From a plasmid, in assembly GCF_056746865.1 (NCBI RefSeq), contig NZ_JBWKMP010000003.1: DNA of 64,000 nucleotides. One strand, 5' to 3'. The notes under the pieces are model-generated. The model had not been told where the DNA came from, searched no databases, and saw only the letters and a program-made list of their open reading frames with translations. Within the stretch, counting starts at the first letter, position 1; the number at the start of each line of letters is the position of its first letter. Below, piece after piece: positions 1-39,605 of the stretch. The translations under genes and the position numbers were made by a program.

Positions 1-99
1 AAGATAGAAGCTCAATTACGAAAGGAGCAGCGTCAGTTGGTGGCGATGACTAACCAGCTATGGAACGCCGCTGTGAAAAAACGTGAGGCTTCCCTATGA
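1..99 (+). CDS. 3' end of an upstream gene (C-terminal fragment, function unknown)
   Basis: Frame is open from the window edge (...KIEAQLRKEQRQLVAMTNQLWNAAVKKREASL*). Its TGA stop overlaps the ATG of the next gene (ATGA), implying translational coupling. Confidence 0.35.
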   Translation, partial: KIEAQLRKEQRQLVAMTNQLWNAAVKKREASL

Positions 100-1460
100 C
101 GTTAATTAACTGGGAAGCGCATCGAGCTAAGTTCCTGGAGTTAAGAGAAGAAACCGGGATCACCATAAAAGAATATTGCGAGCAGCATGACCTCAGCTTT
201 AACACCGCCAGAAAGCATCTCAATATGAAAAAAAATGAGGTTAAGGCGAAAGCTAAGGCTACCGGGAAAAGTACAAAACAGCGCGCAAAAAGCAGCGCCA
301 CCGGCTCAAAAAAAGAGCAAAAAAAGGCTAATAAAAGCACAGAATTTACAAAAACTGACAAATCGTTGGCTGGTGGACGGTTCCGCGCCATGCCGCAAAA
401 ACAAAATGCGGATCACAAAGAAAAGCCAAGTAATAACAACAAGATACACAAGGATGTGAAGGGATCATTTTGTGATGAAATGGGAGAAATGATCCCTAAA
501 AGCAGCGATAAAGCCCAACGAAACAAGGGATCATTGCAAATGATCCCTGATTCATCAGCTCAAAGCACCACTTTGCCTGCCACCAACGTCGCCCGTGAGA
601 TGATGAAGAACGGCGCGACTGAACATTTACGACTTGCGATACAGATGGCGCAGGAACGAGCAATTCAGTATCAGGCTATCGTTGACCAGGAAGCGGAGCG
701 ACTACAGGAAGAGATTGACGCCCTCGGTGATACACAGCCAGAGGGGATGCACCCAGGGCAGCGTCTTCTCGGACTGATCAGCGATGCGGCCTACTACATG
801 AATGACTTTATCACCAGGCTGGCAGCCATCTATCAGAACGAGCAGAAGCTACGCCAGGGGGATGAAAAACTTGCGCAGGGCGCGCGTCAGCAGGCATTCA
901 GGGAGGCTGAGGCCAGAGAAAAACTGGCGATTGCCCGCCTACAAGCCGAGCAGCGTGGCAAGGAGATTGAGTATCGCATTGGCGCTGACGCACGCGCCGC
1001 CAGGGTTATCGCCGCCGCTATACGTATGCGTGAGCGCGAGGAGCTGGATGATATAGGTGTTGCTGAATATATCGAGCGGCAGGGCGTCAGTGTCCCGGCT
1101 ATCCTGGCGGCACGAGCGGCAAAAGCGATCTCACTTCTGGAGCCTCCGGTTTCTGACGTTAACGATGTTGATGATGAGCAACTGGATAAAGAGGCGAAGC
1201 AGTTTGCCGAGCAACAAGCTGGACTCCCACAATGGCTTGCACAACGCCGGGCTGAAGTAGCGAAAATCGTTGATAGGCTTGGGATGGGGGATTACGACCG
1301 GAACGGAGAACGTAAAGCCGGTGAATTTGAGGCCAATGATGAAGACCTGAATATAGACCCTTCCGCGACGGCTGATATCTACGGTGATTATGACGCGGGG
1401 GATACCGGTTTTGATGCTGTAGATGACGAGATTGCGATAGACCAGCCGGAGGATGACTAA
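96..1460 (+). CDS. pacA: terminase small subunit-like DNA-recognition protein (P1 PacA-like)
   Basis: 454 aa. N-terminal HTH-like stretch (ITIKEYCEQHDLSFNTARKHL), a Lys-rich linker and an acidic C-terminus. Stop overlaps the start of the terminase large subunit (TAATGG). GATC-rich inverted repeats sit in its 5' third, as for pac inside P1 pacA. Confidence 0.55.
   Translation: MTLINWEAHRAKFLELREETGITIKEYCEQHDLSFNTARKHLNMKKNEVKAKAKATGKSTKQRAKSSATGSKKEQKKANKSTEFTKTDKSLAGGRFRAMPQKQNADHKEKPSNNNKIHKDVKGSFCDEMGEMIPKSSDKAQRNKGSLQMIPDSSAQSTTLPATNVAREMMKNGATEHLRLAIQMAQERAIQYQAIVDQEAERLQEEIDALGDTQPEGMHPGQRLLGLISDAAYYMNDFITRLAAIYQNEQKLRQGDEKLAQGARQQAFREAEAREKLAIARLQAEQRGKEIEYRIGADARAARVIAAAIRMREREELDDIGVAEYIERQGVSVPAILAARAAKAISLLEPPVSDVNDVDDEQLDKEAKQFAEQQAGLPQWLAQRRAEVAKIVDRLGMGDYDRNGERKAGEFEANDEDLNIDPSATADIYGDYDAGDTGFDAVDDEIAIDQPEDD
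461..548. other. candidate pac (packaging initiation) site: two inverted pairs of AGGGATCATT / AATGATCCCT, giving 4 GATC Dam sites
   Basis: GATC at 464, 491, 529 and 542. Each pair is a perfect 10-bp inverted repeat, with spacers of 17 and 3 nt. The repeats lie inside the pacA-like ORF, matching P1 pac architecture (clustered TGATCA/G hexamers within pacA). Confidence 0.4.
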
Positions 1461-2968
1461 TGGCTGGTGGTCGTAAGATTAAGTGCGTCACCAGTGATCC
1501 ACGTTGGCGCGATATGGTTATCAGGTATCGATACAACTTTACCCAGGCGGTTGTCGATATTTTTGGGATGTTCCCCTCCCACCAGCAGCAGCAGATCATT
1601 CAGTCAGTGCAGGAGACGGGGAGCAGGACGACCGTTACGTCCGGACACGGAACGGGTAAGTCGTCCCTTACCGCGATGTTGCTACTAATTTTTATGATCC
1701 TGTTCCCCGACGCCCGCGTCATTATTGTTGCGAACAAAATAGGCCAGGTAAAAACAGGCGTATTCAAATACGTGAAACAGTTTTGGGCGAATGCTGTTAA
1801 GCGCCACGGCTGGTTACAGACCTATTTTGTCCTGTCTGACACCATGTTTTATGAGCGTTCCCGTAAAGGGATATGGGAAGTGCTCTGTAAAGGTTATCGA
1901 CTCGGTAACGAAGAGGCACTGGCGGGGGAGCACGCGGAGCATTTACTGCTAATCCTTGATGAAGCATCGGGCATATCCGATAAGGCGATTAACGTCATGA
2001 CGGGGGCGTTAACGCAGAAAGATAACCGTATGCTCATGCTTTCCCAGCCTACGCGTCCAAGCGGTTACTTTTATGAATCTCACCATTCAAGGGCAAAGGC
2101 AGAAGGCAATCCGGAAGGTGTCTGGACGGCAATAGTCCTTAACTCTGAAGAATCACCATTCGTTGAACCGAGCTTTATTCGTGAGAAATTGCTGGAGTAC
2201 GGCGGCAGGGATTCGCTGGAGTACATGGTTAAGGTGCTGGGCCAGTTCCCGCGTGCAATTAACGGGTATTTGCTTGGTCGTGATGAGTGCGACCGCGCCG
2301 CACGGCGTAAAGTGTTGCTGGAGAAAGATTGGGGCTGGGTAGCGACCGCTGACGTCGGTAATGGTCGCGATAAATCGGTGCTCAATATATGCAAAGTATC
2401 CGGTTATCGTGAGAAACGACGCGTTGTGAACTTTAAGATACTGGAGATGCCAGGCACTATGGACCCGTTGGCTTTTGCCGACTTTATCTATAACGAATGC
2501 ACTCCTGATAAATACCCGAACATCACCATTGCTGTGGATGCTGATGGCTTTGGTTCAGATACGTGTGCGCAGCTTGTCCGCCGTGGTGCTAATCCCGTTC
2601 GCATCCGTTGGGGTAAGCCTATGTTTGCGCTAAGAGACAGAGAACGCTTTGTCAATCAGCGTGCTTACGCCAATATTATGGCAGGGGATGCCATTAAATC
2701 CGGGCGTATGCGTATCGATAGTGACCCCAAAACCGCAGATCAGGCATCAAAAATCCCGTATATGCTTAACGAAGAAGGGAAGGTAGCGATGATGCGCAAG
2801 GAGCACATGCGGCAGAAGTTAAACATCAAGTCACCGGACAGATGGGATACCTACTGCTTCACTATGCTGGTGGATTACGTGCCTGCTAATGAAGACATTG
2901 GCGCAGAACTCGCAACATTCCGCGATCAGGTGTTGGCAGAAGTGGATATTCCTGATATTGACATTTAA
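1460..2968 (+). CDS. pacB: terminase large subunit (ATPase plus RNase H-like nuclease; P1 PacB-like)
   Basis: 502 aa. Walker A-like VTSGHGTGKSS and Walker B LLLILDEAS. C-terminal nuclease-type acidic motifs ATADVGNGRD and IAVDADGFGS. Translationally coupled to the upstream TerS-like gene. Confidence 0.8.
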   Translation: MAGGRKIKCVTSDPRWRDMVIRYRYNFTQAVVDIFGMFPSHQQQQIIQSVQETGSRTTVTSGHGTGKSSLTAMLLLIFMILFPDARVIIVANKIGQVKTGVFKYVKQFWANAVKRHGWLQTYFVLSDTMFYERSRKGIWEVLCKGYRLGNEEALAGEHAEHLLLILDEASGISDKAINVMTGALTQKDNRMLMLSQPTRPSGYFYESHHSRAKAEGNPEGVWTAIVLNSEESPFVEPSFIREKLLEYGGRDSLEYMVKVLGQFPRAINGYLLGRDECDRAARRKVLLEKDWGWVATADVGNGRDKSVLNICKVSGYREKRRVVNFKILEMPGTMDPLAFADFIYNECTPDKYPNITIAVDADGFGSDTCAQLVRRGANPVRIRWGKPMFALRDRERFVNQRAYANIMAGDAIKSGRMRIDSDPKTADQASKIPYMLNEEGKVAMMRKEHMRQKLNIKSPDRWDTYCFTMLVDYVPANEDIGAELATFRDQVLAEVDIPDIDI

Positions 2969-3005: not shown

Positions 3006-4044
3006 TTACCAGAGTTTTGCCGCGTACATCGTTTGTGTGAATGTGTACCCATAGCGTTCTTCAACGCTTTTACCGTATTTTTTCCTGGCTTCAGTAAGGC
3101 GGATGCCTGTCAGGTCATCGCCGGAGGCAATCATAACTTCCAGTAGTTCCAGGTCCATTTTATCCAGCCTTGCCATTGCATCTTTAGCCTCTTGAATTTT
3201 CCGGCTAACGATCTGGTGTATGGCTGGATCGGCTTCGGCCAGCATTTTATCTGATTTGTTTTTTAAACTCTGATTGCGGATATCAATGTTTCTCAGGATA
3301 TATGACTTCACGACGTAGCTTGGCTGCTGCTTTTCCAGATCACGAACCCGATAAAGGTCAAATTCGCCGAGAAGTCCGCACGGAAGCGGTTTAATGCCAG
3401 TGTAAATGGTAAGGGTGCGGCGCTCACCAACGTTGTTAACAACGGGAATCTCTGTGTTTGCTTTTTTTGCAAAGATCAGCGCACCGTGCGTACCCACTCT
3501 GAAGCGTGAAAGTCCATTGTTGCCCTCAATATTGGTGGTAATCACCACATCGGTATAACCTTCTTTTCTTGCGCGGTATACCTCGCCCTCACGTTCAGCG
3601 GCGAAGAATCTGCGTTCTTCTTCAAGCGCACCGACAACCTGTGAAAATATCCTGTTTTTCATGCTTTTCTTTATAGTTTTATCGTATTTTTTCAGCAGGT
3701 CTTCGCGCGTAAATGTTCTCGTTGTGGTTGCGCTTTGCATAACGATGTGCGTACTCTGATTAGTATCCTCAACAATGAATGGGATCGGTAAATAAACCGA
3801 CTCAACAATGTTTGAGGCTTTGTCATCATCCTTGCGACACAGATCAACAAAGGCTTTCCATTCGGCTATGCATTTTTCAGCTTCTTCTAATACAGCCGGA
3901 TCATGTGTTAATGCAACATGGCGAAATTCCTCGCCAACATAACTGGTATCATGGAAAACAGAGTTTGCGACCACCAGCTCTTTCCACCTTTCAGCGGTTT
4001 GCAGGAACCGTTTGTACTCATTCTCGATCGACTTCTTACTCATT
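3006..4044 (-). CDS. hypothetical protein; positional analogue of the P1 c1 immunity repressor (function unproven)
   Basis: 346 aa from the MSKKSIENEY start with AGGAATAATG RBS; the longer track ORF lacks an RBS. Lies between pacB and lox-cre on the opposite strand, as c1 does in P1. Its upstream region carries operator-like TTTTCTAACA motifs. No sequence similarity to P1 C1 could be recalled. Confidence 0.5.
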
Positions 4045-4057
4045 ATTCCTACTCGAT

Positions 4058-4075
4058 TTAGTTTTCTAACATAAA
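4058..4075. promoter_or_regulatory. operator-like motif copy (TTTTCTAACA core) upstream of the minus-strand repressor candidate
   Basis: One of about 14 copies of the core ATTTTCTAACA found across 10 intergenic sites. Confidence 0.4.
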
Positions 4076-4145
4076 AGTCCTGTGACAAATTTATGCTGAA
4101 TAACAAGGTGAGTAAAGGATAAAACCGCTTTTTTTTGATTGTTCC

Positions 4146-4161
4146 TATTAGAAAATGTAAC
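4146..4161. promoter_or_regulatory. operator-like motif copy (TATTAGAAAATGTAAC)
   Basis: Variant of the dispersed motif, in the regulatory region between the repressor candidate and lox. Confidence 0.35.
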
Positions 4162-4238
4162 CAGGAGCGGCTACCGCATGGCTGACGGATTTGCGAAGTG
4201 ATCTGGTCGGTGTTTTTTTGGGAAAAAAGTTCCGATTT

Positions 4239-4272
4239 CTAACTTTAAATAATTGGCATTATTTAAAGTTAG
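4239..4272. other. lox-like recombination site (34 bp: 13-bp inverted arms CTAACTTTAAATA, 8-bp spacer ATTGGCAT)
   Basis: Perfect inverted arms (15+4+15, or 13+8+13 in loxP layout). The arm matches the loxP arm ATAACTTCGTATA at 9/13 positions. Sits 150 bp upstream of the Cre gene, as loxP does in P1. Confidence 0.6.
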
Positions 4273-4423
4273 GCTATAATCTCCAGTAAACAGGCAGTAT
4301 TGACAAGGATGAAAAATCATGCCTCGAATCAAAGGCTTGAATTTTGAAAATTAACTTATAACTACCCTGTCAGTTTTCTATTTTTCACGTAGCGTTATCT
4401 GTATATAGAGGTTTAATAGTTTC

Positions 4424-5452
4424 ATGGGTGAACTAGTTATCTCCGGCGGTTCTGGTGGTTTTCTGCGCGATATTGGCACCGAATACCAGGAAGCTGCAAA
4501 AAACTTTATGCAGTTCATGAACGACCAGGGAGCTTATGCTCCAAATACGCTTCGAGATCTCCGTCTGGTGTTTCATTCCTGGGCGCGGTGGTGTAATTCG
4601 CGCCAGCGCCCCTGGTTCCCGATTACGCCGGAAATGGCCCGCGAGTATCTTCTCCAGTTGCATGAGGCCGATCTGGCCTCGACCACCATTGATAAGCACT
4701 ATGCCATGCTTAACATGCTGCTTTCGCAATGTGGCCTCCCGCCGCTGTCGGACGATAAAAGTGTGTCTCTGGCCATGCGGCGCATCCGGCGCGAAGCGGC
4801 AACGGAAAAAGGCGAGCGAACAGGCCAGGCTATACCGTTGCGGTGGGATGATCTGAAATTGCTCGACGTGTTGCTGTCCCGTTCCGAGCGGCTGGTGGAC
4901 CTGCGCAATCGGGCGTTTCTCTTCGTGGCATACAATACCCTGATGCGTATGTCAGAAATCTCGCGCATCCGCGTCGGAGATCTGGACCAAACAGGTGACA
5001 CTGTAACGCTGCATATTTCACACACGAAGACCATCACGACCGCCGCCGGACTTGATAAGGTGCTTTCTCGTTACACTACCGCCGTACTGAACGACTGGCT
5101 GGAGGTGTCCGGACTTCGAGAACATCCGGACGCGGTGCTATTCCCGCCAATACACCGCAGTAATAAGGCCAGAATCACGACAACGCCCCTTACTGCACCT
5201 GCAATGGAGAAAATATTCAGCGATGCCTGGGGGTTGCTGAACAAACGAGATGCCACGCCGAACAAAGGAAGATACCGGACGTGGACAGGCCATAGTGCGC
5301 GTGTTGGTGCGGCAATTGATATGGCTGAGAAACAGGTGTCAATGGTCGAGATCATGCAGGAAGGTACATGGAAAAAGCCCGAAACACTTATGCGATATTT
5401 GCGCCGTAGCGGGGCATCCGTTGGTGCAAATAGTCGCCTGATGGACTCATAA
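4424..5452 (+). CDS. cre: Cre-family tyrosine site-specific recombinase
   Basis: 342 aa. Long collinear matches to P1 Cre: LAMRRIRRE, RNRAFLFVAYNTLMRMSEISRIRVGDL, HISHTKT, WTGHSARVGAAIDMA, IMQEGTWKKPETLMRYLR. Catalytic R..HxxR..Y pattern is present. Confidence 0.9.
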   Translation: MGELVISGGSGGFLRDIGTEYQEAAKNFMQFMNDQGAYAPNTLRDLRLVFHSWARWCNSRQRPWFPITPEMAREYLLQLHEADLASTTIDKHYAMLNMLLSQCGLPPLSDDKSVSLAMRRIRREAATEKGERTGQAIPLRWDDLKLLDVLLSRSERLVDLRNRAFLFVAYNTLMRMSEISRIRVGDLDQTGDTVTLHISHTKTITTAAGLDKVLSRYTTAVLNDWLEVSGLREHPDAVLFPPIHRSNKARITTTPLTAPAMEKIFSDAWGLLNKRDATPNKGRYRTWTGHSARVGAAIDMAEKQVSMVEIMQEGTWKKPETLMRYLRRSGASVGANSRLMDS

Positions 5453-5468
5453 ATTAATTTTCTAACAA
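5452..5468. promoter_or_regulatory. operator-like motif copy (TTAATTTTCTAACAACC) just after the cre stop
   Basis: Near-identical to the copy after ref (25208..25229). Confidence 0.4.
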
Positions 5469-5869: not shown

Positions 5870-6354
5870 AAACTTACTACCCATCCCTGAACTGTTATCC
5901 AACCACTAATCCTGAGCTGTCAGGGAAACTTCTGTCCCTCCTGGCTGATAGTCCTGATGAATGGCATAAGCCTGGTGATATCAACACACAGTTCCCTGAG
6001 TACGGGTGTATCCGCACCCGAAATGAGCTGAAGAACCTCATTGCTCACGGTTTTGTCCGTCACCGTAGCGGGAAAGGCTATCAGTTGGCTATCCCACAAG
6101 GAGAGGCAAGAGAACTCTTTGGCTATCGAGAAAGCCAGACGCAAGCGCGGGTGATCGCAGAAATTATCCGTAATGGCAGCGTCTATGCCCGCAAATTCTG
6201 GCTGTCTGGCGGTGGTGATGCATCACAGTTCTTGCGTGCTGTGCGATCGCTGGAGGAACAAGGTGTTATCGAGAATACCTGCGTCTCCGTTCCGACCGCT
6301 CCGCATATCAAACGCCGGATTTATACATTTACCCGGAGAGCTAAAAAGCAATGA
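5866..6354 (+). CDS. hypothetical protein, possible winged-helix fold
   Basis: 162 aa. ATGA overlap with both the upstream and downstream gene. Confidence 0.5.
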   Translation: MKTYYPSLNCYPTTNPELSGKLLSLLADSPDEWHKPGDINTQFPEYGCIRTRNELKNLIAHGFVRHRSGKGYQLAIPQGEARELFGYRESQTQARVIAEIIRNGSVYARKFWLSGGGDASQFLRAVRSLEEQGVIENTCVSVPTAPHIKRRIYTFTRRAKKQ

Positions 6355-6845
6355 TTAACGTGAAAGTGAAACGCCTTCATCCGGCGGCAAAACTCCCCGT
6401 TTACGCCACCGCCGGATCGGCGGCGATGGATTTTGTTGCTGTTGAAATAACGCCGGGTATCGATAGCAACGGCGCTATTTCCTCAAGCTGGTGGGTGCAT
6501 ACCGGCCTCGCTATGGCGATCCCTCCTGGCTGGTGTCTGAAACTTTATCCTCGTTCCGGATTGGGCTGCAAAAAGCATACGCGCCTGGCTAACTGCGTAG
6601 GAATTATCGACTCCGATTATCGCGGTGAAATCAAAGCAAAACTGATTACAGATCCCGGTGGTGAAGGCGTTTGCCTCAAGCCAGGAATGGCGGTCATGCA
6701 AGGCATTTTTGAGCGTGTTGAACCGGTATCGCTGGTAGAAGTTGATGAACTCGATGAAACAGAGCGAGGTGCTGGTGGCTTTGGTAGCACATCGGAAGAC
6801 CGCATTGAAATCAAGCGTACACCGCTTCAGTACGCAAAGTTTTAA
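6351..6845 (+). CDS. dut: dUTPase (trimeric dUTP diphosphatase)
   Basis: 164 aa with the five dUTPase motifs in order: AGSAAMD, PRSGLG, GIIDSDYRGE, and C-terminal GxGGFGSTS. Confidence 0.85.
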   Translation: MINVKVKRLHPAAKLPVYATAGSAAMDFVAVEITPGIDSNGAISSSWWVHTGLAMAIPPGWCLKLYPRSGLGCKKHTRLANCVGIIDSDYRGEIKAKLITDPGGEGVCLKPGMAVMQGIFERVEPVSLVEVDELDETERGAGGFGSTSEDRIEIKRTPLQYAKF

Positions 6846-6859
6846 GTAGAGGAAAGGCT

Positions 6860-7510
6860 ATGAATAACATGCCAACGAAAGAGCTTTTTAAGTTCCTTCC
6901 CAAATACAAAGCTCACAAAAACGTTAGTGCATCGAAAATTAAAAATGTTGTTATTTTCGGAGTAACTGATGCCCCACTTTGGGGCTGCATCGAACTCGTT
7001 GAACCAAAAGGGGCAACAGTTTGTGTTGACGCAATGTTTTTACAAAAACACCGACCAAAAACTGGCGGGTATCTGATCGTTTATGAAAACGGTTATCTGT
7101 TCTATGCCCCGGAGAAACCATTTGAGGAATGCTATGGCCTGGTTAACGACGCCTCCAAAAATGGAACCACGGTCATCATTACGGATGACAACGGCGTGAT
7201 GATTAATCTTACTGGGAGCGTAACTATTTCTGCTGGTGGCATCACCACCCAGCAAGAAGAAATCGACCTTGAAGCAGCCGACTTCTCTGATGCGCTAATG
7301 TGGTTGAAGGAAGGCAAGAAAGTTGCCCGACGCGAGTGGAAAGGCGAAAAGCAATTCTGCTGGTTAGTTCTCGCTGGAAGCGTCAATTTACACGGCATTC
7401 ACGTTCCTTATGGTGACCATTTTGTATTGAAAGATGCACAAAATATGGACAGCGTTTGGTTGCCGTCTGTGGATGATTTACTGGCCTGTGACTGGTTTGT
7501 TGTGGAGTGA
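6860..7510 (+). CDS. hypothetical protein with a C-terminal DUF2829-like domain
   Basis: 216 aa. C-terminus FSDALMWLKEGKKVARREWKG...WLPSVDDLLACDWFVVE resembles the phage DUF2829 signature. Confidence 0.5.
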   Translation: MNNMPTKELFKFLPKYKAHKNVSASKIKNVVIFGVTDAPLWGCIELVEPKGATVCVDAMFLQKHRPKTGGYLIVYENGYLFYAPEKPFEECYGLVNDASKNGTTVIITDDNGVMINLTGSVTISAGGITTQQEEIDLEAADFSDALMWLKEGKKVARREWKGEKQFCWLVLAGSVNLHGIHVPYGDHFVLKDAQNMDSVWLPSVDDLLACDWFVVE

Positions 7511-7516
7511 TTTAAC

Positions 7517-8323
7517 GTGGAAAATACCAAGAACATTCAATATCGCTTGCGTAACGGCCTGCTGGTGGATGTAAACGATGATATGTCCCTGCCCTTTGCC
7601 ACCATTGAGCGAACCATCCTTACATACCTGGGCTTAGACGAAGAGTTAGATAGTGAGAATGGCATTGCTATCTGGCGTGACGGAAAAACGGGAGTCAGAC
7701 GTTTTATTACGGCAAGAGGCATTCAGTGCACACAGGAAGAATTGTTTGAACTGGCGCAGTCTTATGGATGCATCGCGTTAGATCCCCTGTATGACCCAGC
7801 CATAGCACAACAACTCATTCGAGAGCTGTCGCTTTCGGTCACGCCAATAATCTTCCGCCAGGGAACCTTAACCGGCACATGGCGTGTAGAACGCATCTCT
7901 AAATATCAGCCATATAATATCCATTTGAACGGCACTATTACTGGTGTGGATCAACCAGTAGCAGGTGAAAACAAAGACCTGGAACTTGCAGTAATGATGG
8001 CAGCTTGTCGCGTGCTTGGCCTGGGCAAGCAGATGTTTATCCATTTCCCAAACGGCGCGGAAGGCGAAGTAGAGCTGATTTCCTGCGACTTTTCCTTAAC
8101 CTGGATGCTTGATGAATTCCTGGACAAAACAGTATTCCGTGCTGAAGAACTGGATATGTATGTCACCTCAAGTATTCCTAATGACGTGAAAGTTGAGGCC
8201 ATCGCTACAGCCAGGGCGAAATGCCGTGCGGCGATTGCAGAACAGGCCAAAGAAGAACAGTCCGATGAAGTCGCGGCAGATGTGGAGGCAGAGGTAGCGG
8301 AGGATGCTGATGCTGACGCCTAA
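7517..8323 (+). CDS. hypothetical protein (GTG start, acidic C-terminus)
   Basis: 268 aa. Stop overlaps the start of the TerL-like paralogue by 20 nt. Confidence 0.5.
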   Translation: MENTKNIQYRLRNGLLVDVNDDMSLPFATIERTILTYLGLDEELDSENGIAIWRDGKTGVRRFITARGIQCTQEELFELAQSYGCIALDPLYDPAIAQQLIRELSLSVTPIIFRQGTLTGTWRVERISKYQPYNIHLNGTITGVDQPVAGENKDLELAVMMAACRVLGLGKQMFIHFPNGAEGEVELISCDFSLTWMLDEFLDKTVFRAEELDMYVTSSIPNDVKVEAIATARAKCRAAIAEQAKEEQSDEVAADVEAEVAEDADADA

Positions 8324-9410
8324 AAACATCACCGAATTACCAGAGTGGAGAGAGCTGGTAAGCAAATATAGCCATGACTGGGCATTAGCAGCAGAAGAGT
8401 TGATGGGTGTTAAGTTAACCCACCAGCAAAAGCTAATTGTTGAGGCGATTCAACAAAAAGGTTCAGCAGTCAGCGTCACCACTCCTGAAGGGATAGGCCA
8501 AAAGACGGTTATCGCTATAATTAGTATTCTTTATACAATCCTGATGCCTGAGTCTAAAACGGTTATTGTTTCCCCAAAGTTCTATAATTGTCGCAGGCAA
8601 GTTATCCAATACATAAGTACGTATTGGGATAGAGTCAGTAACAGAATCCCATTGCTGGGAGAATATTTTAAAGTCGACGGAAACGGCATCAATCATCGTT
8701 ACCGGGAATATTGGGGCTGCGAAATTAAGCCATATCACCGAAATTATGAGGAAGGTTTCGGTGGATATTATGCTGAACATCTTTTAATCATTGTTACGGA
8801 GGCGGCTCTTGCTGGCGATCGGCTATTCAGCATGTTAAGAGCATCGTTAGTAAGTGACGATTCACGTATACTTTTAATGTCCGCTCCTTCAGAGGAGGAG
8901 CATGGACACTTTTACGATTCCCATCATGGTCGTGCAAAATCAGAAGAAAATCCATGTGGTATTTATACAGCCATCAAGCTGAACGCAGAAGATACCCCCA
9001 TTATTTCACAAGGTTATCTTGATAACATTGCAGAAATATATGGTGGTAAAAACAGCGATTACTACCGTCGCATGATTCTTGGTGAGTTTCCAGGTATTAG
9101 GGAGGCTGTTCTTGAATCAGATATGCCGAAAACAATGCGCTTTTCGATGCCTGATGGTAGTGAATGGATAATGCCATTACGAGTGATAGCCCGGCATCAT
9201 GCACAGCACCACGCCAAAAAACATGGCGTTACAACATTGGAGTGGTTGAAATCGCACACCATTCCACTCTTCACTGCAGATCACAATGCTATCGTTGAGT
9301 GGGCAAAAACAATTCCGTGGGAGAATGTCGCTGAATACGCCCACATGCTAAAACCGCCGAAAGACAGGCAAGAAATTAGCTGGCTGACAGCAGAAAAAAT
9401 CATTGAGTGA
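8304..9410 (+). CDS. degenerate paralogue of the terminase large-subunit ATPase domain (no nuclease domain)
   Basis: 368 aa, collinear with residues ~40-300 of the pacB product. HQQKLIVEAIQQKGSAVSVTTPEGIGQKT aligns to HQQQQIIQSVQETGSRTTVTSGHGTGKSS, and YYAEHLLIIVTEAALAG aligns to EHAEHLLLILDEASGIS. The Walker A lysine is displaced (GQKT) and the Walker B Asp is replaced by Thr. The C-terminal 120 aa are unrelated to the nuclease domain. Confidence 0.7.
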   Translation: MLMLTPKNITELPEWRELVSKYSHDWALAAEELMGVKLTHQQKLIVEAIQQKGSAVSVTTPEGIGQKTVIAIISILYTILMPESKTVIVSPKFYNCRRQVIQYISTYWDRVSNRIPLLGEYFKVDGNGINHRYREYWGCEIKPYHRNYEEGFGGYYAEHLLIIVTEAALAGDRLFSMLRASLVSDDSRILLMSAPSEEEHGHFYDSHHGRAKSEENPCGIYTAIKLNAEDTPIISQGYLDNIAEIYGGKNSDYYRRMILGEFPGIREAVLESDMPKTMRFSMPDGSEWIMPLRVIARHHAQHHAKKHGVTTLEWLKSHTIPLFTADHNAIVEWAKTIPWENVAEYAHMLKPPKDRQEISWLTAEKIIE

Positions 9411-24564: not shown

Positions 24565-24596
24565 GTGTTAGAAAATCAATTTTGATTTTCTAACAC
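24565..24596. promoter_or_regulatory. 32-bp near-perfect palindromic operator GTGTTAGAAAATCAATTTTGATTTTCTAACAC in a divergent promoter region
   Basis: 15+2+15 palindrome built from two copies of the dispersed TGTTAGAAAAT motif. Lies between the leftward accessory operon and ref. Confidence 0.55.
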
Positions 24597-25715: not shown

Positions 25716-25828
25716 GAAAACACACAGTTGCGCCCTGGCATTATCGTGGGGTATATTTCTACGGCACCTTAGAAAAACGGGTGCCGGGATTGGAACCCCG
25801 GATAATGTCAAAGGCGACACAGACGCCG

Positions 25829-25855
25829 AACGCGTCTTTTTTTGTGTCATGCCAT
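25829..25855 (+). terminator. rho-independent terminator (GACGC-CGAAC-GCGTC plus T7)
   Basis: 5-bp GC stem followed by TTTTTTT. Confidence 0.45.
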
Positions 25856-25879: not shown

Positions 25880-26020
25880 CTCAGAGATCAATGGTAGTGC
25901 TGGCTGGGCTGCCGAAAGGCAGGCCGGTTCCCTTTGACGCCGGTAGTTCCAACCCAGTCAGTGCTACCGCCATTGAGATTGGAACCTCACGCGGTAGCTC
26001 CTTAACTTAGTCAAAGGAGG
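25880..26020 (+). ncRNA. candidate c4-like antisense RNA region upstream of icd/ant-like genes
   Basis: Non-coding 150 bp with a tRNA-like TAGCTCAGAG...GGTAGTGC segment. Mutually complementary short elements (GGTTCC/GTTCCAACC versus GATTGGAACC x2) sit upstream of the icd-like start, as for P1 c4 a'/b' pairing with ant mRNA. Confidence 0.25.
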
Positions 26021-36869: not shown

Positions 36870-37533
36870 TAACCGACCGCTGGCGGTGAGTCTTTGTGAT
36901 TATACAGGGAATATGGTTTCCCCCTGGCTGGAACACGGCATTGATGCAGTCATTGTCGATCCGCAACACCAGGAGTCCGGCAGCCAATTGATGGAGTCAG
37001 GTGCTGTACTCACACGTATCAGCGCAATTATTGACAGTGATGAGGTCTACAATTTCCTTCGGAAAAATTTGCACAGAGTTGTATTTTTAGCCGGTTTCCC
37101 TCCATGTACTGACCTGGCTGTATCTGGCGCACGCTGGTTCGCAGATAAAGCAAAAAAAGATCCGGTTTTCCAGTTCAAAGCAATGCAGGTTGTCTGGCAG
37201 TGTTACGACATTGCAAAGATGATTGGTTGCCCGTACATGATTGAAAACCCGGTCAGCCAAATATCGACATTCTGGCGTAAACCTGATCACATATTCCATC
37301 CTTATCACTTCACTGCATATTGCAAGGAAGACAATTACACCAAAAAAACATGCCTGTGGAGCGGACAAGGATTCATCATGCCAACTCCGCGAATCGACAA
37401 GTCGTTAGGTGATCCAGATAACCGAATACACAAGGCACCGCCAGGGCCTGAAAGAGCGAATTTTCGTAGCGCGACACCTTACGGTTTTGCAAGAGCTGTA
37501 TTTGAAGCAAATAAGGAGGGAATCCGTGGCTGA
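36850..37533 (+). CDS. short C5-cytosine DNA methyltransferase-like protein
   Basis: 227 aa from a GTG start with GGAGG RBS. Motif I-like LCDYTGNM, PC motif LAGFPPCTDLAVSG, ENV-like MIENPVSQ. No target-recognition domain is apparent. Confidence 0.45.
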   Translation, partial: AVKQSINNRPLAVSLCDYTGNMVSPWLEHGIDAVIVDPQHQESGSQLMESGAVLTRISAIIDSDEVYNFLRKNLHRVVFLAGFPPCTDLAVSGARWFADKAKKDPVFQFKAMQVVWQCYDIAKMIGCPYMIENPVSQISTFWRKPDHIFHPYHFTAYCKEDNYTKKTCLWSGQGFIMPTPRIDKSLGDPDNRIHKAPPGPERANFRSATPYGFARAVFEANKEGIRG

Positions 37534-38274
37534 TATTGGTGCTAAATTTATTTCTTATAGCGACAATCATCGTCCTGCGGCGGAAGCCACTATCAGCCAT
37601 ATGCGACGTATTCGCTCGGAGGACGAATTTGATCGCCCAGTCTTTAAGTGGGTCGGCGGCAAATTTTCTGCACTGCCCATTATCTTCGAACACCTGCCCC
37701 ACGGAAAACGGTTGATAGAACCTTTCGTTGGAGGTGGCGCTGTTTTCACTAATGCCGGATTTAAAAGCAACCTGCTGAACGATATCAATAATGACCTGAT
37801 TAACTTCTATCAGACATTGCAGCGTGAAGGGCATTCTCTTATCACACTGGCATATCGTTTTTTTCAGGATTACAACTCTGCTGATGCATTTTTGAATGTT
37901 CGCAATGCATTCAACAATGGTGCTTATGATTCCCTTCACCATGCAGCGGCGTTCCTGTATCTCAATCGTCATTGTTTTAATGGCGTCACTCGCTATAACC
38001 GTAAAGGAGAGTTCAACGTCGGATATGGAAAGCAGAAATCACCCCACTTCCCTCTCGCGGAAATGGAGGCGTTCCTGGCTGACGATATTTCAAAGTATTC
38101 GGAATTTGTGTCCGGCGATTTTGCTGGTGTAATTGAGGCTGCCGGGAATGATGATGTGATTTTCTGCGATCCCCCCTATGAACCATTGCCTGACACTACC
38201 GGATTTACAAATTACTCAGGGCATAGCTTTAGGTTTGAAGATCAACAACGGCTGGTGTCACTGCTGGTGGATGC
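37527..38274 (+). pseudogene. Dam-like N6-adenine DNA methyltransferase, 5' portion, interrupted by IS2
   Basis: GTG start after AAGGAGG. FKWVGGKF (Dam LKWAGGK-like motif I) and DPPY (motif IV). The frame is broken at the IS2 junction after ...LLVDA. Confidence 0.7.
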
Positions 38275-38285
38275 TGGATTTGCCC

Positions 38286-39191
38286 CTATATTTCCAGACA
38301 CCTGTTATCACTTAACCCATTACTGGCCCGCTGCCGTAGATATTCCCGTGGCGAGCGATAACCCAGTGCACTATGCGGATGCCATTCGTTATAATGCTCG
38401 AACGCCTCTGCAAGGTTCTTTGCTGCCGTTAACCCGTCTGGTTTAGGCATGATACTGATGTAGTCACGCTTTATCGTTTTCACGAAGCTCTCTGCTATGC
38501 CGTTACTCTCCGGACTCCGCACCGCCGTGTTCTTCGGTTCAAGCCCCAACATCCGGGCAAACTGCCGTGTTTCATTAGCCCGGTAGCATGAACCATTATC
38601 CGTCAGCCACTCTACTGGAGACGCCGGAAGCTCGTTGCCGAAGCGGCGTTCCACCGCTCCCAGCATTACGTCCTGTACTGTTTCACTGTCGAAGCCGCCC
38701 GTAGTGACTGCCCAGTGCAGTGCCTCACGGTCACAGCAGTCCAGCGCGAACGTGACTCGCAGTTTTTCTCCGTTATCACAGCGGAACTCGAACCCGTCAG
38801 AGCACCATCGTTGATTGCTTTCTTTCACGGCCACTTTGCCAGTATGTGCCCGTTTCGATGGCGGTACAGCGGTTTTTCGCTCAAGCAACAGCGCATTCTG
38901 GCGCATGATCCGGTAAACACGTTTGGCATTGATCGCAGGCATACCATCAAGTTCGGCCTGTCTGCGAAGCAGCGCCCATACCCGACGATAACCATACGTG
39001 GGCAGCTCTCCGATAACATGGTGTATACGGAGAAGCACATCCGTATCATCTGAGTGACGGCTGCGGCGACCATCTTTCCAGTCATCGGTTCGTCTGAGAA
39101 TGACGTGCAACTGCGCACGCGACACCCGGAGACAACGGCTGACTAAGCTTACTCCCCATCCCCGGGCAATAAGGGCGCGTGCGCTATCCAC
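38286..39191 (-). CDS. insD: IS2 transposase InsD (orfB; DDE integrase domain)
   Basis: 301 aa beginning [29 protein letters not shown]... Expressed as an InsCD fusion by -1 frameshifting. Confidence 0.9.
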
Positions 39192-39514
39192 TTTTTTGCA
39201 CGCCCGTATTCAACGGCTTCTTTAAGGAGTTCATTTTCCATCGTTTTTTTGCCGAGCAGGCGCTGGAGTTCTTTAATCTGCTTCATGGCAGCAGCAAGTT
39301 CAGAGGCAGGAACGACCTGCTCTCCTGCGGCCACAGCAGTAAGACTTCCCTCCTGGTATTGCTTGCGCCAGAGAAATAACTGGCTGGCTGCCACACCGTG
39401 TTGCCGGGCAACAAGGGAGACCGTCATTCCCGGTTCAAAACTCTGCTGAACAATAGCGATCTTTTCCTGTGTAGTACGCCGTCTGCGTTTCTCCGGTCCT
39501 AAGACATCAATCAT
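39149..39514 (-). CDS. insC: IS2 InsC (orfA; HTH)
   Basis: 121 aa beginning [41 protein letters not shown]... Confidence 0.9.
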
Positions 39515-39605
39515 CTGCTCTCCAATGACTAGTCTAAAAACTAGTATTAAGACTATCACTTATTTAAGTGATATTGGTTGTCTGGAGATTCAGGGGGCCA
39601 GTCTA

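Follow-up and report, generated by a model that had tools for sequence, protein, structure and literature searches.

The 34-bp palindrome at 4239..4272 of the window, by which we mean the whole 64,000-nucleotide stretch of plasmid DNA that was analysed, is very probably rox, the site naturally targeted by Dre recombinase, whose gene begins 151 nt downstream, in a D6-like P1-family Escherichia plasmid prophage. On the minus strand, its core (4240..4271) reads TAACTTTAAATAATGCCAATTATTTAAAGTTA, which agrees base for base with the published 32-bp rox TAACTTTAAATAAT-GCCA-ATTATTTAAAGTTA (PMC4777119). A direct alignment of the window with phage D6 (AY753669, 'Enterobacteria phage D6 immC region') showed the same 32 bp to be identical; the D6 record carries a misc_recomb feature at 4909..4940, annotated as 'region of crossover (rox) site for Dre recombinase', upstream of 'dre: tyrosine recombinase; similar to the P1 Cre recombinase'. 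Everything about Dre/rox that was testable here agreed: the sequence of the site, the orthology of the enzyme, its specificity residues and the genomic setting. The finding is a re-identification of a known system, in which the sequence had been read accurately and the functional guess was correct.

Dre/rox of phage D6 was reportedly described by Sauer and McDermott in 2004. The system, also dated to 2004 in later work, is in wide use (PMC4777119, PMC3553980, PMC4957104), and recombination of rox by Dre without cross-reaction to loxP has repeatedly been shown, in eukaryotic cells as well as in E. coli (PMC4777119, PMC3553980, PMC4957104). An earlier, sequence-only reading of this DNA had presented the palindrome as a novel lox-type site of use as an orthogonal Cre/lox-like tool. 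The novelty has to be given up, the 32-bp core being identical to published rox and the adjacent recombinase a 94% Dre allele; the assignment as a lox-type recombination target of the adjacent Cre-family recombinase holds, given the identity with rox and the place beside Dre. The pair is indeed such a tool, but one that already exists as Dre/rox (PMC4777119, PMC3553980, PMC4957104), a routine companion of Cre/loxP in mouse, zebrafish and bacterial genetics. What is gained is the correct label: the window belongs to a D6-like plasmid prophage, and the 'tyrosine-type recombinase/integrase' of ~190 plasmids is Dre, with an unannotated Dre target 150-151 bp upstream in those plasmids.

Symmetry and uniqueness of the palindrome

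Positions 4239..4272 read CTAACTTTAAATAATTGGCATTATTTAAAGTTAG and form a perfect palindrome in which both 13-bp arms pair throughout. The arms CTAACTTTAAATA and TATTTAAAGTTAG are fully complementary around ATTGGCAT, as had been stated when the site was described as a perfect 34-bp 13-8-13 structure, but the true symmetry is 15+4+15, because the outer two bases on each side of the 8-bp 'spacer' also pair. In its 34-bp form, rox consists of two perfect inverted arms of 15 bp, 4239-4253 and 4258-4272, which flank TGGC, an asymmetric core of 4 bp at 4254-4257. The site can still be read as 13-8-13, yet its asymmetry is confined to the central 4 bp. Published comparisons of rox with loxP use this 13-8-13 register (PMC4777119). 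Within the 32-bp core, the left 14-bp arm TAACTTTAAATAAT (4240..4253, plus strand) and the right 14-bp arm ATTATTTAAAGTTA (4258..4271, plus strand) each represent, by their identity with rox, one Dre binding half-site, while the TGGC core (4254..4257, plus strand; GCCA in the published orientation) sets the direction of the site and lies within the crossover region. The base pair outside the 32-bp core is C:G in the window, giving 15-bp perfect arms, and A/G in D6, where the arms are 14 bp long.

The match to loxP, recomputed on each arm, was 9/13, the value given before, and overall 20-21/34 positions were identical; loxP itself (ATAACTTCGTATA-ATGTATGC-TATACGAAGTTAT) was absent from the 64-kb window. 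The distance of ~150 bp to the Cre homologue was likewise accurate, with 151 nt between the 34-bp site and the ATG at 4424.

Chance does not account for the palindrome at 4239..4272. Among 20 random 64-kb sequences generated by a Markov-1 model, perfect arms mostly reached 9-11 bp at their longest and never exceeded 13, and the pattern of the arms plus any spacer (at most 3 mismatches) was matched once in the window vs. never in 100 shuffles. Perfect palindromes with 15-bp arms numbered two in the window, at 4239..4272 and 24565-24596. A search for a second copy of the site elsewhere in the replicon, suggested by the sequence-only reading, found the site once in the window (64 kb) and once in NZ_CP098907.1, the closest complete plasmid; the P1 genome, too, has a single loxP. 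The next-best candidate, inside pacB, had 9/28 arm mismatches and was set aside as a chance match.

The Dre allele and related recombinases

The dre gene (4424..5452, plus strand) encodes a 342-aa Cre-family tyrosine recombinase whose identity is 94% with D6 Dre and 41% with P1 Cre. Its alignment with D6 Dre was gapless, with 322/342 identical residues, and 15 of the 20 substitutions fell in the N-terminal 102 residues (residues 2-102; N-terminal DNA-binding domain). Pfam matches were PF00589 (Phage_integrase, 2.6e-17) and PF02899 (N-terminal SAM-like domain). In the alignment, all seven Cre-type active-site residues were kept (R175, E178, K202, H290, R293, W316 and Y325, the counterparts of Cre R173, E176, K201, H289, R292, W315 and Y324), and the active-site numbering published for Dre is the numbering of the window protein (PMC4777119). 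When Cre K43, R259 and G263 are changed to the Dre/Panto residues R, P and K, Cre recombines rox (PMC4957104); the window protein has R44, P259 and K263 at these specificity positions, which is the Dre state. None of the 20 substitutions relative to Dre (0/20) affected an active-site or specificity residue. WP_021551777.1, annotated earlier in a public E. coli plasmid, is identical to the window protein.

The closest known system is D6 Dre/rox (AY753669, MF356679), with the same 32-bp core, core orientation and gene order as the window. The spacing is also the same, 152 nt from the 32-bp core, or 151 nt from the 34-bp form, to the dre ATG. D6 Dre has the length and the catalytic and specificity residues of the window protein, from which it is 20 substitutions apart (94% identity), whereas ~110 bp on the c1 side of rox are unalignable between D6 and the window, and DNA identity over the region as a whole is 83-86%.

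P1 Cre belongs to the same protein family and has the same active site, at 41% identity to the window protein. Both loxP and the window site are 34 bp long and match at 9/13 positions per arm; each is placed between the recombinase gene and the c1 immunity region, and each is presumed to serve in cyclisation and dimer resolution. The asymmetric core, however, comprises 4 bp in rox and 8 bp in loxP, and there is no cross-recombination (PMC4777119). The two loci also differ in layout: between loxP and cre there are ~420 bp, which contain cra and three cre promoters, whereas the window site lies 151 nt from dre and is overlapped by a promoter-like element.

Panto/pox and two clades of recombinases, here termed the 55% and 45% clades, are likewise Cre-family enzymes of P1-like elements, with AACTTTAAATA- or AACTTTATATA-type arms that are near to rox, and Panto recombines both rox and pox (PMC4957104). 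They differ from the window pair in their recombinases (45-55% identical), in their spacers and in a distance of 250-400 bp between site and gene. The 55% clade may be Panto/pox. Farther away stand Vika/vox, VCre/VloxP, SCre/SloxP and Nigri/nox, Cre-like tyrosine recombinases with 34-bp 13-8-13 sites adjoining the gene (PMC3553980, PMC3082901, PMC4957104). They were found by reasoning similar to that applied earlier to this DNA, namely from a site beside a recombinase gene, but their sequences are distant (Vika is 23% identical to Dre; PMC3553980), their sites are unrelated and their hosts are Vibrio, Shewanella or others.

A new lox-type site of new specificity, served by an uncharacterised Cre homologue and therefore yielding a new orthogonal pair, would fit the divergence of the site from loxP (9/13 per arm) and that of the protein, 41% identical to Cre and 20 substitutions from published Dre. 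We consider this extremely improbable: the identity of all 32 bp with published rox already refutes it, the catalytic and specificity residues are in the Dre state, and Dre and rox had been noted earlier in E. coli strains by Karimova et al. (PMC4957104). It also appears unlikely that, with rox itself unchanged, the variant Dre differs measurably from D6 Dre in activity, in spacer tolerance or in a specificity relaxed toward related sites such as those of the 55% clade, which would make it a useful new allele. The concentration of the 20 substitutions in the N-terminal DNA-binding domain is in favour of such a difference, and Panto, at 52% identity to Dre, also recombines rox (PMC4957104), so that specificity within the clade can be relaxed. 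Against this, the cognate site and the known specificity residues are both unchanged and the same site is retained at an equal distance throughout the lineage, which argues for unchanged recognition.

Conservation and exchange at rox

Eighty viral-contig loci were fetched by recombinase protein homology alone, and for each locus the best 13-8-13 palindrome within 800 bp upstream was taken, with no assumption about its sequence. The Dre clade (at least 87% identity, 32 loci) had a rox-type site at 32/32 loci, at 150-151 bp from site to protein-match start. The Cre type (42-43%, 27 loci), which served as positive control, gave loxP at 23/27 loci with a corresponding distance of 473-481 bp. The 55% clade had GAAACTTTAAATA-ATAAGCCT-TATATAAAGTTTC, with at least five spacer variants, at ~253-265 bp, and the 45% clade had xTAACTTTATATA-ATGGGACT-TATATAAAGTTAG at ~400 bp. 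Both of these clades (L070-L085 and L086-L089, respectively) were found in roughly 90-kb viral contigs and have 34-bp sites of their own. Loss of the palindrome where the recombinase is conserved, which had been named beforehand as an outcome that would speak against the site, was not seen, since every relative keeps its site. The retention of a rox-type site next to the gene across lineages indicates that the palindrome is co-inherited with the gene. Another 23 loci were found by an exact-arm pattern, so that arm invariance among them is partly built in; the 32 Dre-clade loci and the other homology-fetched loci are free of that bias.

The exact 32-bp rox was present at 21/32 Dre-clade sites. 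An A-to-G change at the 9th base of the left arm occurred in 10/32 homology-fetched sites, alone in nine of them and with further changes in L067 (IMGVR_UViG_2908543018_000007), where the core is changed from TGGC to TGGA and the innermost right-arm base is also altered; one of the 32 Dre-clade sites had the core GGGG. All 14 columns of the right arm (14/14) were invariant in 25 distinct upstream regions, its first-base variant in L067 coming from the homology-fetched set. This innermost position is critical for incompatibility with wild-type rox (PMC4777119). The core was TAGT in the Salmonella Typhi plasmid pK91 (L007, NZ_CP029912.1) and TAGC, with unchanged arms, in L016, whose recombinase is 69% identical. 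Among the sampled plasmids the arms were unchanged even where the DNA identity of the recombinase gene was 79%, and the orientation of the core relative to dre was the same in every locus. Natural rox variants beside intact dre genes were thus found in L067, L050/L023, L007, L016 and the L003/L044 group, and these may be natural heterospecific rox types. For recombinase engineers and phage-plasmid biologists, a by-product of the comparison is this set of natural variants beside Dre alleles of 69-100% identity.

A scan for rox arms in species-representative genomes gave a single match, in a Clostridia MAG (L010, OZ007016.1; 6381-6412), which was rejected as there is no recombinase nearby. This palindrome has exact rox arms, the spacer TAAT and A7 and T6 flanks, with no dre-like gene within 8 kb, and appears to be an unrelated hairpin, the match being a coincidence of AT-rich sequence.

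The similarity of the window to more distant relatives starts at 4221-4237, at the left edge of rox. The ~110 bp between rox and the c1 leader (within 4044-4238) are unalignable between lineages, while the c1 leader is conserved; within this otherwise unalignable left flank, every lineage has an A/T run, 10-20 bp away from the site. The flanks fall into two types on the left and two subtypes on the right, and all four combinations occur, which implies at least one exchange at or near rox. Such an exchange would be compatible with Dre-mediated crossing-over between co-resident elements, although this does not amount to proof. An ORF spanning the site on the minus strand (4171..4332) was rejected as a gene: no PHROG family was assigned to it, and on its left it extends into the DNA that is unalignable between lineages.

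Promoter overlap, presumed role and host element

A sigma-70-type promoter match, TTGGCA-16 nt-TATAAT, lies at 4253..4280 on the plus strand and reads toward dre, with 11/12 consensus positions. Its -35 hexamer (4253-4258) is made up of the rox core and the single base that adjoins it at either end, the stretch between -35 and -10 is occupied by the right arm, and the -10 hexamer (4275-4280) starts 3 bp beyond the right arm. This was the sole match of at least 11/12 on either strand of the 64 kb; because chance alone would give ~1.2 of them in 64 kb, what speaks for the element is where it lies and how well it is conserved, and not that it exists. The -10 was TATAAT in 24/25 distinct upstream regions, including the 69% lineage, and CATGAT in the remaining one. 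Around it, in the same 25 regions, 0/3 columns of the 3-bp linker and 2/20 columns of the next 20 bp were invariant. The match of the -35 hexamer falls to 3-4/6 in three natural spacer variants.

With the -35 on the rox core and the right arm between -35 and -10, bound Dre should hinder RNA polymerase, and Dre occupying rox would in this way limit its own synthesis. That Dre at rox competes with RNA polymerase and represses its own expression is suggested by this arrangement, with a likelihood that we place between somewhat below even and about even. The conserved overlap, a second by-product of the comparison, thus hints at autoregulation. A literature search found no paper on Dre autoregulation, with Sauer and McDermott 2004 and the D6 genome paper outside its scope. 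Only tentatively can a wider picture be proposed, which as a whole we rate as rather doubtful: rox would be the core of a self-repressed dre promoter, its natural variants would be mutually incompatible rox types that limit Dre-mediated fusion or exchange between co-resident D6-like phage-plasmids, and such exchanges would have left their footprint in the sharp homology break at the left edge of rox. P1 Cre/loxP differs from the window in having no promoter on the site, the nearest cre promoter being ~100 bp from the lox centre. Caution is advised for rox in constructs, in which rox followed by a natural-like flank would amount to a strong bacterial promoter.

Two further promoter candidates were considered in this region. 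On the minus strand, TGGAGA-16-AATAAT (4285 to 4258, 9/12) was taken as chance, its -35 region not being conserved in D6-type relatives. Midway between rox and dre, a perfect TTGACA (4300-4305) is kept in all Dre-clade relatives except L016. As a -35 element it was rejected, the best -10 at 18-nt spacing being TCGAAT, without A at position 2; it could represent a second, weaker dre promoter or a protein-binding site.

The overlap with an 11/12 promoter match, together with the position between the divergent c1 and dre genes and a minus-strand T-run ~11 nt downstream of the palindrome in all lineages, might suggest that the palindrome is mainly a transcription element (an operator or promoter of dre or c1, or a terminator hairpin) and that recombination is secondary or has been lost. 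This is very improbable, as the same DNA is an experimentally proven recombination target and an intact recombinase with all catalytic residues adjoins the site in every relative. An AT-rich stem with a distant T-run is, moreover, a non-canonical terminator, on which the terminator scan made no call, and the candidate repressor-operator motif GTTAGAAAAT is absent from the site. A regulatory role is compatible with the recombination role of rox and is no replacement for it.

Arm binding, synapsis in a tetramer, tyrosine cleavage and a Holliday junction are established for Cre/loxP. From Cre/loxP and the experimental literature on Dre/rox we infer the mechanism for the window allele, in which one Dre monomer would bind each inverted arm, two rox sites would synapse within a Dre tetramer, and Tyr325 would cleave inside the central crossover region, with strand exchange proceeding via a Holliday junction. 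Because the asymmetric TGGC core fixes the direction of the site, directly repeated sites would give excision or resolution. In P1, Cre/loxP acts in dimer resolution and in the cyclisation of injected DNA, and by analogy the role of the window pair would most likely be to resolve plasmid-prophage dimers before partition and to circularise terminally redundant phage DNA after injection. Dimer resolution or cyclisation had also been put forward in the sequence-only reading. Mutagenesis of rox is in support of a functional crossover region corresponding to the 8-bp spacer of loxP (PMC4777119), and a role in dimer resolution and cyclisation has been assumed for D6-like plasmids (PMC6799933).

The window represents ~64 kb of a roughly 90-kb D6-like E. 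coli plasmid prophage, a type recognised as a group (PMC6799933). The gene order is pacA-pacB-c1-rox-dre-orf-orf-dut, as in D6 through dut, followed by a Tad2-like ORF. The pacase/terminase gene pacA (96-1460, plus strand) is annotated as DNA pacase A subunit in D6 and the closest plasmid, and its downstream partner pacB (1460-2968, plus strand) is annotated in both as well; the two genes are part of what defines the pac-c1-rox-dre region of P1/D6 type. The 345-aa c1-type phage repressor (3006..4043, minus strand) was assigned from the D6 c1 annotation, homology, phrog_1678 and a same-sized gene in relatives; c1 and dre are divergently transcribed. After two small ORFs downstream of dre comes dut (6351-6845). 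The Tad2-like (Thoeris anti-defence 2) ORF at 6860-7510 (plus strand), three genes downstream of dre, matches PF11195 at 2.8e-18.

The window is 99% identical to and colinear with 89-94 kb E. coli plasmids, a few cargo differences aside. The closest of them, an 89-kb circular plasmid, carries repB, parM, phd/doc, higBA and P1-like head, tail and Dar genes; there are no tRNA genes in the window, while this plasmid has five just outside the part that the window covers. The dre region matched 193 plasmid records from Escherichia, Salmonella, Shigella and a few other genera, and relatives of it were present in 154/5426 complete E. coli genomes. Five of the 157 places matching rox-dre in complete E. 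coli genomes were chromosomal and may reflect the integration of phage-plasmids or errors of assembly.

The motif GTTAGAAAAT, extended roughly to TGTTAGAAAATTAA, occurred 17 times in the window at no more than 1 mismatch vs. 4.8 expected, and 0/100 shuffles reached 17. It is found as singles or as inverted pairs 18 bp apart in AT-rich intergenic DNA, at 4061-4070 (minus strand), 4147-4156 (plus strand), 5457-5466 (minus strand), 19491/19509, 24567/24585, 25216 (minus strand), 35921/35939 and 45347 (plus strand). These sites include the c1 leader, the DNA just past the dre stop and the vicinity of the C4/isrK RNAs, and the pair at 24567/24585 falls in the palindrome at 24565-24596; between rox and dre there is no copy. 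The motif is a candidate operator of the 345-aa C1-type repressor. The P1-type C1 operator ATTGCTCTAATAAATTT was absent from the window at up to 3 mismatches, and the rox palindrome is therefore no P1-type operator. In the P1-type immI region, Rfam identified isrK and C4 antisense RNA at 25764-25842 and 25887-25974 (plus strand).

Two segments of the window are absent from the closest plasmid. A 368-aa ORF (8304-9410, plus strand) between an isaA-like gene and doc/phd matches phrog_5902 (unknown function) and has weak similarity to terminase-large-subunit-type ATPases, with no match in Pfam or PADLOC; it is possibly accessory cargo. The other, a 1331-bp insertion at 38275-39605, interrupts a DNA methyltransferase ORF (37409-38446) and contains overlapping transposase ORFs on the minus strand (39149-39559 and 38286-39191; phrog_151/157), a layout that looks like that of the IS3 family. 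Its junctions overlap by ~5 bp in the comparison, which is consistent with a target duplication.
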